Shown here in pieces: positions 8,363-26,244 of a stretch of 64,000 bases of DNA. The translations under genes were made by a program, and so were the position numbers. The notes below the pieces were generated by a model that worked only from the letters and a program-made list of their open reading frames with translations, was not told the origin of the DNA and did no database searches. The DNA lies in assembly GCF_044647545.1 (NCBI RefSeq), contig NZ_CP172818.1; one strand, written 5' to 3'. Position 1 is the first letter of the stretch. Every line of letters starts with the position of its first letter. The DNA is from Escherichia coli. Lineage in GTDB: Bacteria > Pseudomonadota > Gammaproteobacteria > Enterobacterales > Enterobacteriaceae.

Positions 8363-8390
8363 CCCCGAAGCCTGGCTTCGGGGTTTCTTC
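8363..8390 (+). terminator. rho-independent terminator after ygaM
   Basis: ccccgaagcc-tg-gcttcgggg hairpin followed by TTTCTTC. Confidence 0.65.
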
Positions 8391-8584
8391 ATTATGCCCG
8401 GCAAAAAAACACAAAAATCCCCTACCCCGTTGAGCCATTCATCGGTGGCGTAATCAATCTAAAATTCCCATATCTTGTGTGGTTGAATCTTTTTTCAACT
8501 ACATCTAGTATCTCTGTATCAACAGAGAGACAACCCGACGCGTATCATCGCGCCGTATCTTCATTTTAAACGGAAATACGAATC

Positions 8585-15994: not shown

Positions 15995-16076
15995 TCGGGC
16001 GGATAAGGCGTTTTTGCCTCATCCGCCGCTCTGTACACAATGCCTGATGCGACGCTGGTGCGTCTTATCATACCTA
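15995..16076. repeat. REP elements (two units) downstream of proX
   Basis: ttcgggcggataaggcg...catccgccg and gcctgatgcgacgctggtgcgtcttatca palindromes. Confidence 0.6.
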
Positions 16077-20485: not shown

Positions 20486-22024
20486 ATGCAACAGCAAAAA
20501 CCGCTGGAAGGCGCGCAACTGGTCATTATGACGATTGCGCTGTCACTGGCGACATTCATGCAGGTGCTGGACTCCACCATTGCTAACGTGGCGATCCCCA
20601 CTATCGCCGGGAATCTGGGCTCATCGCTCAGCCAGGGAACGTGGGTAATCACTTCTTTCGGGGTGGCGAATGCCATCTCGATCCCGCTTACCGGCTGGCT
20701 GGCAAAGCGCGTCGGGGAAGTGAAACTGTTCCTCTGGTCCACCATCGCCTTTGCTATTGCGTCGTGGGCGTGTGGTGTCTCCAGCAGCCTGAATATGCTG
20801 ATCTTCTTCCGCGTGATTCAGGGGATTGTCGCCGGGCCGTTAATTCCGCTTTCGCAAAGTCTATTGCTGAATAACTACCCGCCAGCCAAACGCTCGATCG
20901 CGCTGGCGTTGTGGTCGATGACGGTGATTGTCGCGCCAATTTGCGGCCCGATCCTCGGCGGGTATATCAGTGACAATTACCACTGGGGCTGGATATTCTT
21001 CATCAACGTACCGATTGGCGTGGCGGTGGTGTTGATGACACTGCAAACCCTGCGCGGACGCGAAACCCGCACCGAACGGCGGCGGATTGATGCCGTGGGG
21101 CTGGCACTGCTGGTTATTGGTATCGGCAGCCTGCAGATTATGCTCGACCGCGGTAAAGAGCTGGACTGGTTCTCATCACAGGAAATTATCATCCTCACCG
21201 TGGTGGCGGTGGTGGCTATCTGCTTCCTGATTGTCTGGGAGCTGACCGACGATAACCCGATAGTCGATCTGTCGTTGTTTAAGTCGCGCAACTTCACCAT
21301 CGGCTGCTTGTGTATCAGCCTCGCGTATATGCTCTACTTCGGCGCGATTGTTCTGCTGCCGCAGTTGTTGCAGGAGGTCTACGGTTACACGGCAACGTGG
21401 GCAGGTCTGGCCTCTGCGCCGGTAGGAATTATTCCGGTGATCCTGTCGCCGATTATCGGCCGCTTCGCGCATAAACTGGATATGCGGCGGCTGGTAACCT
21501 TCAGCTTTATTATGTATGCCGTCTGCTTCTACTGGCGTGCCTATACCTTTGAACCGGGTATGGATTTTGGCGCGTCGGCCTGGCCGCAGTTTATCCAGGG
21601 TTTTGCGGTGGCCTGCTTCTTTATGCCGCTAACCACCATTACGCTGTCCGGTTTGCCACCGGAACGACTGGCGGCAGCATCGAGCCTCTCCAACTTTACG
21701 CGAACGCTGGCGGGGTCTATCGGCACGTCGATAACCACGACCATGTGGACCAACCGCGAGTCGCTGCACCATGCGCAGTTGACTGAGTCGGTAAACCCGT
21801 TCAACCCGAATGCCCAGGCGATGTACAGTCAACTGGAAGGGCTTGGGATGACGCAACAGCAGGCATCAGGCTGGATTGCCCAGCAGATCACCAATCAGGG
21901 GCTGATTATTTCCGCCAATGAGATCTTCTGGATGTCAGCCGGGATATTCCTCGTCCTGCTGGGGCTGGTGTGGTTTGCTAAACCGCCATTTGGCGCAGGT
22001 GGCGGCGGAGGCGGTGCGCACTAA
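20486..22024 (+). CDS. emrB: multidrug efflux MFS transporter (14-TMS DHA2 family)
   Basis: ORF track frame 20477..22024; start placed at ATG 20486 (MQQQKPLEGAQ...); 512 aa. Confidence 0.95.
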   Translation: MQQQKPLEGAQLVIMTIALSLATFMQVLDSTIANVAIPTIAGNLGSSLSQGTWVITSFGVANAISIPLTGWLAKRVGEVKLFLWSTIAFAIASWACGVSSSLNMLIFFRVIQGIVAGPLIPLSQSLLLNNYPPAKRSIALALWSMTVIVAPICGPILGGYISDNYHWGWIFFINVPIGVAVVLMTLQTLRGRETRTERRRIDAVGLALLVIGIGSLQIMLDRGKELDWFSSQEIIILTVVAVVAICFLIVWELTDDNPIVDLSLFKSRNFTIGCLCISLAYMLYFGAIVLLPQLLQEVYGYTATWAGLASAPVGIIPVILSPIIGRFAHKLDMRRLVTFSFIMYAVCFYWRAYTFEPGMDFGASAWPQFIQGFAVACFFMPLTTITLSGLPPERLAAASSLSNFTRTLAGSIGTSITTTMWTNRESLHHAQLTESVNPFNPNAQAMYSQLEGLGMTQQQASGWIAQQITNQGLIISANEIFWMSAGIFLVLLGLVWFAKPPFGAGGGGGGAH

Positions 22025-22033
22025 GTACAACTA

Positions 22034-22060
22034 AGCCAGTTCATTTGAACTGGCTTTTTT
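22034..22060 (+). terminator. rho-independent terminator after emrB
   Basis: agccagttca-tttg-aactggct hairpin followed by TTTTTT. Confidence 0.7.
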
Positions 22061-22087
22061 CAATTAATTGTGAAGATAGTTTACTGA

Positions 22088-22603
22088 CTAGATGTGCAGT
22101 TCCTGCAACTTCTCTTTCGGCAGCGCCAGTTCTTCGTTGCTGTTGATGCGCACGTCACGTTCCAGAATGCTACGCGCAATATCCTGCGCTTCCTGCAACG
22201 AGTGCATCTGGTAAGTGCCACACTGGTAGACGTTCAGTTCCGGGATCTGATTCTGATCCTGCACTTTCAGCACGTCTTCCATTGCCGCTTTCCAGGCATC
22301 AGCGACACGCTGCTCATCTGGCGTACCAATCAGACTCATATAAAAACCGGTGCGGCAGCCCATTGGCGAGATATCGATAATCTCTACGCCATTACCGTTA
22401 AGATGGTTACGCATAAAACCAGCAAACAGGTGCTCCAGGGTATGGATCCCTCTTTCTGGCATCACTTCTTTGTTCGGCACGCAGAAGCGCAGATCGAACA
22501 CGGTGATTGCGTCGCCATGCGGGGTGTTCATTGTTTTCGCCACCCGAACTGCAGGCGCTTCCATCCGGGTATGATCGACTGTGAAGCTATCTAACAACGG
22601 CAT
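22088..22603 (-). CDS. luxS: S-ribosylhomocysteine lyase (AI-2 synthase)
   Basis: ORF track 22088..22603, 171 aa; recognised LuxS with HTLEH metal-binding motif. Confidence 0.97.
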
Positions 22604-22671
22604 TTAGCCACCTCCGGTAATTTTTTTAAAAATTTTCTGAACTCTTTCTTCCCAGGCGAGTCTGAGTATAT

Positions 22672-22744
22672 GAAAGACGCGCATTTGTTATCATCATCCC
22701 TGAATTCAGAGATGAAATTTTGGCCACTCACGAGTGGCCTTTTT
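22672..22744 (+). ncRNA. micA: MicA (SraD) Hfq-dependent small RNA
   Basis: gaaagacgcgcatttgttatcatcatccctgaattcagagatgaaattttggccactcacgagtggcctttt matches my recollection of the MicA sequence, with its own terminator hairpin ggccactc-acg-agtggcc + TTTT. Confidence 0.93.
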
Positions 22745-22752
22745 CTTTTCTG

Positions 22753-24336
<1,584 letters not shown>

Positions 24337-25652: not shown

Positions 25653-25729
25653 TGGTGCATCCGGGAGGATTCGAACCTCCGACCGCTCGGTTCGTAGCCG
25701 AGTACTCTATCCAGCTGAGCTACGGATGC
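25653..25729 (-). tRNA. argQ: tRNA-Arg (anticodon ACG)
   Basis: Reverse complement is GCATCCGTAGCTCAGCTGGATAGAGTACTCGGCTACGAACCGAGCGGTCGGAGGTTCGAATCCTCCCGGATGCACCA (77 nt, CCA encoded). Confidence 0.95.
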
Positions 25730-25792
25730 ATCGGGAAAATTTATTTTATTGCTGATATTGATACCGCTACTAAAGCCATATCAAGTAAGAGA

Positions 25793-25869
25793 TGGTGCAT
25801 CCGGGAGGATTCGAACCTCCGACCGCTCGGTTCGTAGCCGAGTACTCTATCCAGCTGAGCTACGGATGC
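25793..25869 (-). tRNA. argZ: tRNA-Arg (anticodon ACG)
   Basis: Identical 77-nt tRNA-Arg copy. Confidence 0.95.
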
Positions 25870-25931
25870 ATCGGGAAATTTATTTTACTGCTGATATTGA
25901 TACCGCCACTAAAGCTATATCAAGTAAGAGA

Positions 25932-26008
25932 TGGTGCATCCGGGAGGATTCGAACCTCCGACCGCTCGGTTCGTAGCCGAGTACTCTATCCAGCTGAGCT
26001 ACGGATGC
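25932..26008 (-). tRNA. argY: tRNA-Arg (anticodon ACG)
   Basis: Identical 77-nt tRNA-Arg copy. Confidence 0.95.
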
Positions 26009-26071
26009 ATCGGGAAACTTACTTTACTGCAGATTTTTTGATACCGCCACTAAAGCCGTATCAAGTAAGAA

Positions 26072-26148
26072 TGGTGCATCCGGGAGGATTCGAACCTCCG
26101 ACCGCTCGGTTCGTAGCCGAGTACTCTATCCAGCTGAGCTACGGATGC
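26072..26148 (-). tRNA. argV: tRNA-Arg (anticodon ACG)
   Basis: Identical 77-nt tRNA-Arg copy. Confidence 0.95.
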
Positions 26149-26151
26149 AAA

Positions 26152-26244
26152 TGGCGGTGAGGCGGGGATTCGAACCCCGGATGCAGCTTTTGACCGCATA
26201 CTCCCTTAGCAGGGGAGCGCCTTCAGCCTCTCGGCCACCTCACC
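26152..26244 (-). tRNA. serV: tRNA-Ser (anticodon GCU), long variable arm
   Basis: Reverse complement is GGTGAGGTGGCCGAGAGGCTGAAGGCGCTCCCCTGCTAAGGGAGTATGCGGTCAAAAGCTGCATCCGGGGTTCGAATCCCCGCCTCACCGCCA (93 nt). Confidence 0.95.

Follow-up and report, generated by a model that had tools for sequence, protein, structure and literature searches.

Antisense transcription across micA and the published ends of luxS and gshA messages in Escherichia coli

Introduction

To our knowledge, the sigmaS-dependent small RNA GadY has no large trans regulon. Encoded opposite the gap between two same-strand genes, gadX and gadW, it is said, in work attributed to Opdyke et al. (2004, 2011), to pair with their joint transcript, and the ensuing RNase III-dependent cleavage reportedly splits the gadX and gadW messages, makes the products more stable and measurably affects expression. 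GadY offers the closest parallel to the way in which the micA locus appears to work. A second system to be compared is RyeA/SdsR (RyeB), which is also a small-RNA locus giving rise to RNase III-cut double-stranded RNA, and the only small-RNA locus that stands above micA in the data obtained with the p19 protein (PMC7373196). In RyeA/SdsR, however, both partners are small RNAs, whereas the antisense partners of MicA are the leaders and tails of mRNAs.

MicA itself is strictly dependent on sigmaE (PMC1804206) and acts in trans through the Hfq-dependent repression of ompA, phoP and other mRNAs (PMC2956633; 2015 review). Its antisense overlap with luxS is real and already known: Udekwu 2010 (PMC2956633) described three luxS mRNA species, P1, P2 and R3, and the subject was reviewed in 2015. 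Because both the arrangement and the antisense processing of luxS are thus published, finding them again matters little as such. In that study, however, the ends were determined by primer extension and RACE only, the 3′ end of gshA was left aside, and the apparent 5′ triphosphate of R3 was left without explanation. Here, we go beyond it by tying the R3 end, a listed luxS transcription start and the 3′ end of gshA to sequenced RNase III fragments.

Results and Discussion

The locus and its agreement with K-12

The DNA that we analysed, hereafter the window, is a stretch of 64,000 nucleotides of ordinary E. coli core chromosome extending from gabP to ascB. Its positions 22560-22842 are 100% identical to MG1655, and over 22560-23000 it differs from K-12 by five single-base changes, all of them in gshA codons (22843, 22900, 22906, 22912 and 22999), so that the luxS-gshA intergenic region and the P1 region are identical and the element itself shows no differences. 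Because the sequence equals that of K-12, the published K-12 maps transfer directly to the window, whose coordinates are obtained by subtracting 2,792,130 from the K-12 U00096.3 position. The same 901-bp region is found in 5423 of 5426 complete E. coli genomes.

On the minus strand, luxS (S-ribosylhomocysteine lyase, K-12 b2687) occupies 22088-22603, with its ATG at 22603-22601; the call comes from the list of open reading frames and is backed by the RefSeq annotation of the matching region (100% identity over 901 bp). Upstream of it on the same strand, gshA (glutamate-cysteine ligase; open reading frame list and annotation) extends over 22753-24309, with a TTG start and a TGA at 22755-22753. 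Between the two lies micA, on the plus strand, at 22672-22743 according to Rfam and at 22672-22744 in the K-12-equivalent annotation, and its 3′ end was placed at 22747 by Term-seq in all three conditions (Adams 2021, PMC7815308). The match to RF00078 scores 83.9 bits against a gathering score of 41 and covers the full model (1-75), with E = 3e-12 in a 15-kb search and 1.4e-11 over the whole window; no other Rfam family was found in 21900-23100 at E ≤ 1. The K-12 record has an equal geometry (micA b4442, 2814802-2814874; luxS start 2814733; gshA end 2814883), and sequence, strand, position, spacing, sigmaE-type promoter and terminator are all the same as those of K-12 MicA (SraD, b4442, RF00078). 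We are thus dealing with micA (sraD) of E. coli, a locus that has been studied in depth.

The initial annotation, made from the sequence, had put MicA on the plus strand at 22672-22744, which agrees with both placements. It had also correctly placed the luxS start at 22603 on the minus strand and the MicA terminator just before the gshA stop, but its distances need adjustment. The luxS ATG and the MicA +1 are separated by 68 nt (22604-22671), the 69 bp that it gave being the difference between coordinates, and the interval between the annotated MicA end at 22744 and the gshA stop, given as 9 bp, contains 8 nt (22745-22752), or 13 when counted from the end of the stem at 22739 and 5 from 22747. 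Its three-gene overlap is indeed known in E. coli, although it is the transcripts that overlap and not the annotated genes. Its ranking of the spot as the most densely layered one in the window is a matter of subjective judgement. E. coli genomes annotated by PGAP whose sequence at this locus is 100% identical (H1-H10) carry annotations for luxS, gshA and emrB but none for micA, unlike the curated K-12 record.

MicA and the facing promoters

The minimum free energy fold of MicA comprises a first stem-loop at 22694-22715 and a terminator stem at 22722-22739 (z = -2.98), followed on the plus strand by the tail TTTTTCTTTT, and the terminator scan gave a match on this strand. This fits the family, with its single-stranded 5′ region, internal stem-loop and Rho-independent terminator with a U tail, and a consensus structure built from 90 sequences among the matches listed is the same. 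Both stems and nt 1-28 are almost invariant among these matches, which renders covariation uninformative.

The sigmaE-type promoter of micA (22638-22665, plus strand) is composed of a -35 block TGAACTCTT at 22638-22646 and a -10 GTCTGA at 22660-22665, six nt before the +1 at 22672. The two blocks are 13 nt apart, with 16 nt between GAACTC (22639-22644) and TCTGA (22661-22665), to be compared with the sigmaE consensus GGAACTTTT / ~16 nt / GTCAAA (PMC1804206). Both blocks are conserved in 97-99 unique species sequences among the matches listed. Directly upstream of the -35, and inside the luxS 5′ leader, we noticed a block composed only of A and T, AATTTTTTTAAAAATTTT (22619-22636), which is partly conserved across species; it could be a UP element of micA, or an AU-rich Hfq site or ribosome-binding enhancer of the luxS mRNA.

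Facing this promoter is the proximal luxS promoter (22657-22694, minus strand), the sole sigma70-like match in a consensus scan of 21900-23300, with a -35 ATGATA at 22694-22689 and a -10 TATACT at 22670-22665. A luxS transcription start at K-12 2814787, which corresponds to window 22657, is given in Table S1 of PMC7967276, compiled from global dRNA-seq and Cappable-seq data, and lies 7-8 nt downstream of this -10. The resulting leader of 54 nt begins 15 nt downstream of the MicA +1 on the opposite strand and does not overlap MicA. The -35 of the luxS promoter is located inside the invariant 5′ region of MicA, its -10 shares base pairs with the segment between the micA -10 and +1, and 87 of 99 unique species sequences among the matches listed have the luxS-side hexamer (a match of at least 4/6, with A2 and T6).

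Such an arrangement raises the question of whether the main effect in cis takes place on the DNA, the luxS proximal and micA sigmaE promoters excluding each other and the convergent gshA/P1 and micA polymerases colliding. The luxS -10 TATACT (22670-22665) indeed stands against the micA -10 GTCTGA (22660-22665), with starts 15 bp apart, and the retention of the luxS-side hexamer in those 87 sequences would fit this explanation, as would the steric hindrance between both transcription units raised in the 2015 review and the perturbed MicA level seen upon luxS deletion (Kint 2010). However, conservation of the hexamer may merely reflect the constraints of the sigmaE promoter, and interference between promoters leaves the RNase III-dependent species and the double-stranded RNA fragments described below without explanation. 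We regard it as unlikely that this is the main effect; it is compatible with RNase III cutting, to which it could add a further layer rather than being an alternative.

Downstream in the luxS leader, the Shine-Dalgarno sequence GGAGGTGG (22608-22615, minus strand) is the perfect complement of CCACCUCC in CyaR (sequence taken from K-12 b4438), and its positions rank with the best conserved columns when 97 unique species sequences among the matches listed are compared. CyaR controls luxS translation, according to work cited in PMC2956633. The global prediction of a duplex between the luxS leader and CyaR carried no information, as 49 of 300 shuffles did equally well, and only the 8-nt Shine-Dalgarno match stands. 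At the other end of the gene, the Term-seq 3′ end of luxS is at 22029 (PMC7815308), on the minus strand 4 nt beyond a stem, where the tail reads AGTTGTAC; the 10-bp hairpin concerned, 22033-22056, separates the convergent emrB (plus) and luxS (minus) and has a T-run on the plus strand only.

luxS 5′ ends and RNase III-cut RNA

The distal luxS promoter P1 (22935-22971, minus strand) is found inside gshA codons 447-459, with a -35-like TTCTCT at 22971-22966, an extended -10 TCTATGATT at 22950-22942, and a +1 at 22935, a G on the minus strand and -332 from the luxS ATG. Udekwu 2010 characterised it by 5′ RACE and reporter fusions as sigmaS-dependent (PMC2956633). The transcripts of that study, with P1 at -332 and an R3 whose 14-nt overlap depends on MicA and RNase III, are the same as those considered here, and their coordinates map unchanged. 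The expectation that luxS leaders begun upstream of 22672 would be antisense to MicA is borne out by the P1 leader, which spans all of MicA. The counter-argument considered by the initial annotation, a luxS start downstream of 22672, applies to one isoform only, the one that begins at 22657; distal transcription does overlap. Comparison with the published MicA and luxS transcript maps thus supports the overlap (PMC2956633, PMC7373196).

Several published luxS 5′ ends fall inside MicA. That of R3, with its 14-nt overlap, corresponds to window 22685 (PMC2956633), the end of De Lay and Gottesman 2009, cited in the same paper with a 15-nt overlap, to 22686, and a second listed start, K-12 2814838, to 22708 (Table S1, PMC7967276). 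The P2 species also ends within MicA, which was tentatively put down to cleavage by a single-strand endonuclease, and band X of Udekwu maps to MicA +4 (PMC2956633). R3 is absent in an rnc mutant, increases when MicA is overproduced and decreases with an anti-MicA RNA (PMC2956633).

Huang 2020 (PMC7373196) used the p19 protein to capture RNase III-cut double-stranded RNA, and micA is the second most abundant of the clusters overlapping small RNAs in these data (cluster S-220; Lybecker dsRNA MS-300). A table of that paper marks micA as positive for both the Lybecker dsRNA set and the Conway overlapping transcripts. The genome version used was U00096.2, for which we derived an offset of +1978 at the locus from its gshA and luxS coordinates, and the five micA duplexes of 21-22 nt in Table S3 were placed in the window by sequence. 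In the first two, plus-strand 22688-22708 and 22688-22709 are paired with minus-strand 22706->22686 and 22707->22686, respectively; in the third, plus 22689-22710 with minus 22708->22687; in the last two, plus 22710-22730 and 22711-22732 with minus 22728->22708 and 22730->22709. The strands of each pair are offset by 2 nt, corresponding to the 2-nt 3′ overhangs typical of RNase III, and the set resolves into two adjacent pieces (plus 22688/9-22708/10 and 22710/1-22730/2) that together cover 22686-22732. When mapped to the window, the published ends place minus-strand transcription across micA, with P1 at 22935, the gshA message ending at 22731 and 21-22-mers of this strand lying within 22686-22730.

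The minus-strand fragments can be read for the ends that their excision would leave behind. Removal of fragments 22706/7->22686 and 22708->22687 would leave downstream RNA beginning at 22685 and 22686, which are the published luxS ends, and fragment 22730->22709 implies both a downstream 5′ end at 22708, the listed start 2814838, and an upstream 3′ end at 22731, the gshA 3′ end found by Term-seq. For the set of duplexes as a whole, the upstream minus-strand RNA would end at 22731 or 22729. From this we infer that those luxS 5′ ends which fall within MicA arise by processing.

The ends at 22685/22686 and 22708 could also be true starts, made from weak promoters inside micA and giving leaders that overlap MicA by 14-37 nt, in which case their match with the fragment junctions would be coincidental. 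R3 is enhanced by TAP (PMC2956633), which suggests a 5′ triphosphate, hence a primary transcript and not an RNase III product, and this counts against cutting as its origin. Moreover, De Lay and Gottesman are cited in PMC2956633 as having called the R3 end a start site, and 2814838 is listed as a start in the table based on dRNA-seq and Cappable-seq. The absence of R3 in the rnc mutant and its response to MicA and anti-MicA are difficult to reconcile with this explanation, as is the exact coincidence of each of the three ends with a junction of the sequenced RNase III fragments: on a rough estimate, three ends would fall on 4 of 76 positions by chance with a probability of ~6e-5, or of a few per thousand if 22685/22686 are taken as one. 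Furthermore, the consensus scan revealed no sigma70-like site serving these ends, and for the upstream sequence, GGGATGATGATAAC, Udekwu noted that no promoter was identified (PMC2956633). True starts at these positions seem to us improbable.

Physical overlap and RNase III cutting at micA are therefore well supported. Two features of the p19 data nevertheless count against the cutting model, namely the asymmetry of the micA reads (42,854 plus versus 131 minus) and the expression of a dsRNA-binding protein in the cells (PMC7373196). Gordon 2017 does not mention the micA locus, and in the RIL-seq literature we found no data on it, only reviews and one network-inference study.

The 3′ end of gshA

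The gshA message has a Term-seq 'primary' 3′ end at 22731 (PMC7815308, supplementary file 1), and hence a 3′ UTR of 22 nt on the minus strand (22731-22752); we verified the Term-seq positions twice, by coordinate arithmetic and by matching the printed 61-nt contexts to the window sequence. This end falls where the complement of the MicA terminator forms its hairpin loop, and the gshA message overlaps MicA by 17 nt (counted to 22747), so that describing gshA as abutting the terminator, as the sequence had first suggested, understated the overlap.

One candidate explanation, in which the hairpin is a bidirectional intrinsic terminator shared by micA and gshA, had to be rejected, for the minus strand lacks a U-tract and mapping puts the gshA 3′ end within the loop. 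The terminator scan matched the hairpin on the plus strand only, with no match for the gshA strand, and the minus strand reads AAAATTTCATCT after the stem, its tail being AAAATTTC. In 114 species loci among the matches listed, the first 8 minus-strand nt past the stem contain 0-4 T. As the hairpin has no minus-strand U-tract, gshA is without a terminator of its own at this site, and since the hairpin fails as a bidirectional terminator, transcription from gshA must continue into the region antisense to MicA.

This lack of a gshA terminator argues for read-through. A table row of PMC7373196 gives the 'serV-luxS operon' of Conway as a micA-overlapping transcript, which also suggests read-through from gshA. 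Udekwu 2010, on the other hand, found no evidence for a gshA-luxS polycistronic message (PMC2956633).

From the positional match with fragment 22730->22709 we infer, as a new and modest step, that the gshA 3′ end is made by the same MicA-guided RNase III event; we did not find the gshA 3′ end stated to be an RNase III/MicA product in the literature examined. Two points count against the cutting model here: the end at 22731 was called in one of the three Term-seq conditions (PMC7815308), and a single-strand-specific nuclease could likewise produce an end located in a hairpin loop.

A second minus-strand 3′ end, stronger than that at 22731 and called in a different condition, likewise counts against the model; it maps to 22784, inside gshA, 31 nt before the stop codon and 152 nt beyond the P1 start (PMC7815308). 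It appears in one condition, in the second block of the file, probably LB OD 2.0, with a score (305,886) higher than that of MicA there, and no terminator-like sequence was found at this position. The 152-nt RNA that would run from P1 (22935) to 22784 was considered as a structured RNA in which nt 1-11 pair with 137-147, but its z is only -1.08 and the helix is not conserved: 59.5% of cells keep it, against 24-53% for shifted controls, and it forms in 10 of 48 minimum free energy folds. We set it aside, since the data do not support a conserved element. On the plus strand, a region of Rho termination at K-12 2815245, window ~23115, is antisense to gshA and ~370 nt past the MicA terminator (PMC7815308, supplementary file 2), which suggests that some plus-strand transcription, possibly MicA read-through, enters the gshA antisense.

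A model for MicA-guided cutting

We consider it highly probable that minus-strand RNAs crossing micA pair with MicA, that RNase III cuts the duplex, and that the outer cuts explain the published ends. In this process MicA, 73-76 nt long, is made from the sigmaE-type promoter opposite luxS and gshA and pairs perfectly with minus-strand RNAs, at least those from P1. The outer RNase III cuts in the duplex would then yield the luxS 5′ ends at 22685/22686, the 'start' at 22708 and the gshA 3′ end at 22731. A single MicA-guided cut would both separate the gshA and luxS messages and destroy the MicA molecule involved, while the luxS start at 22657, whose -10 shares base pairs with the micA promoter, would escape the overlap.

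The likeness to GadY has its limits. The existence of a joint gshA-luxS transcript is disputed (PMC2956633 against PMC7373196), and dependence on both the small RNA and RNase III is published here for the luxS R3 5′ end, whereas the gshA 3′ end presents a positional match. Nor did LuxS protein change when MicA was induced (PMC2956633), which counts against the model.

The luxS 'transcription starts' at -82/-83 and -105 found in the literature and in tables of transcription starts are probably RNase III processing sites, and reporter fusions and promoter annotations built on these ends may mislead. These cuts probably also produce the 'primary' 3′ end of the gshA mRNA; if so, gshA, which encodes the first enzyme of glutathione synthesis, gains a putative link to the sigmaE envelope-stress response. 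Moreover, studies of quorum sensing and biofilms widely employ deletions of luxS or micA, and such deletions can perturb each of the three genes, as seen in Salmonella (Kint 2010).

One may go further and see in MicA, besides an envelope-stress regulator acting in trans, a conserved device that sets where the gshA message stops and the luxS message begins, gshA being without its own terminator across MicA-bearing Enterobacterales and the RNase III cuts setting the ends at 22731, 22685/6 and 22708. If this were true, sigmaE activity would, through the amount of MicA, tune the uncoupling of glutathione synthesis from the message for LuxS and the methyl cycle, and transcription from gshA and P1 would in turn set the rate of MicA turnover. 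We give little credence to this extended version.

Conservation across Enterobacterales

Loci from at least 120 species were collected with an exact 23-nt pattern from the MicA core, so that the sample is biased to loci that keep the exact core; among the matches listed they come from Enterobacteriaceae, Erwiniaceae, Yersiniaceae, Hafniaceae and others. In these matches the order luxS(-)/micA(+)/gshA(-), established by tblastn with the LuxS and GshA of the window, was observed in every locus with enough flank, and MicA is opposite luxS in 117 of 117 loci with luxS in range, as well as in all those with gshA in range. The gap between luxS and MicA is 66-179 nt (median 71, n = 117, among the matches listed), and that between MicA and the gshA stop is 4-22 nt in 110 of the 111 loci measured among them (median 8), with 4-5 nt in such distant species as Yersinia or Pantoea, the lone outlier of 96 nt being possibly an artefact of the frame walk. 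On a set of diverse loci, Rfam placed MicA above threshold in 15 of 15 (71.6-92.4 bits). The overlap geometry, whose conservation the initial annotation had proposed to check across Enterobacteriaceae, is therefore kept across Enterobacterales in both order and tight spacing.

P1 behaves differently. The third positions of its -10 (S454-M455-I456) and -35 codons are no better conserved across the order than their neighbours in 98 gshA sequences among the matches listed, and P1 may exist only in E. coli and its near relatives.

It could be argued that the overlap is simply a by-product of a compact genome, MicA acting only in trans and cutting at the locus leaving the output of luxS and gshA unchanged. 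The absence of synonymous-site conservation at P1 across the order and the unconserved 5′-3′ helix of the possible short RNA derived from P1 are in line with this argument. So is the observation that LuxS protein was unchanged upon MicA induction (PMC2956633), and the 2015 review terms the effect of MicA on luxS 'unclear'. However, tight spacing is maintained in 110 of 111 species of several families among the matches listed, gshA is without its own terminator in all the species loci among these matches, and micA is among the most abundant double-stranded RNA loci of the cell (PMC7373196). In Salmonella, furthermore, deletion of the luxS coding region alters both the MicA level and biofilm formation (Kint 2010). 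We take a mere by-product to be a serious possibility without favouring it.

In Kluyvera, Pseudocitrobacter, Superficieibacter, Pluralibacter and some other Enterobacteriaceae (loci L030, L102, L117, L040, L042, L007, L070, L023, L054, L056 and L116), the spacer between luxS and MicA reaches 123-179 nt instead of ~70. The extra sequence, which varies from genus to genus, is inserted between the A/T block and the ribosome-binding site of luxS. Another particular case is 'Martelella alba' BGMRC 2031 (L072, NZ_SZPQ01000001.1), which is filed as alphaproteobacterial and yet has a luxS-micA-gshA locus of the usual Enterobacterales type, in which MicA scores 91.8 bits, LuxS is 86.6% identical to that of the window and the Arg/Ser tRNA cluster is present; this genome is probably misnamed or contaminated.

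Neighbourhood of the locus

Upstream of yqaB-yqaA-gshA-luxS, and on the same (minus) strand, four tRNA-Arg genes with identical scores and one tRNA-Ser gene are found at 25656-26244. The run from this cluster to luxS is the 'serV-luxS operon' of an operon map cited in PMC7373196, and the same tRNA cluster adjoins gshA in distant species loci.

Elsewhere in the window, a match to naRNA4 (RF02564) at 15997-16074 (plus strand), just past the proX coding sequence, scores 60.0 bits against a threshold of 59.5 and is probably a REP-type repeat element. Compared with FDAARGOS_497, the window is devoid of a 1.9-kb segment between ygaM and nrdH (~8387-8395), which in that strain carries genes of the PLP-dependent aminotransferase and carboxymuconolactone decarboxylase families.
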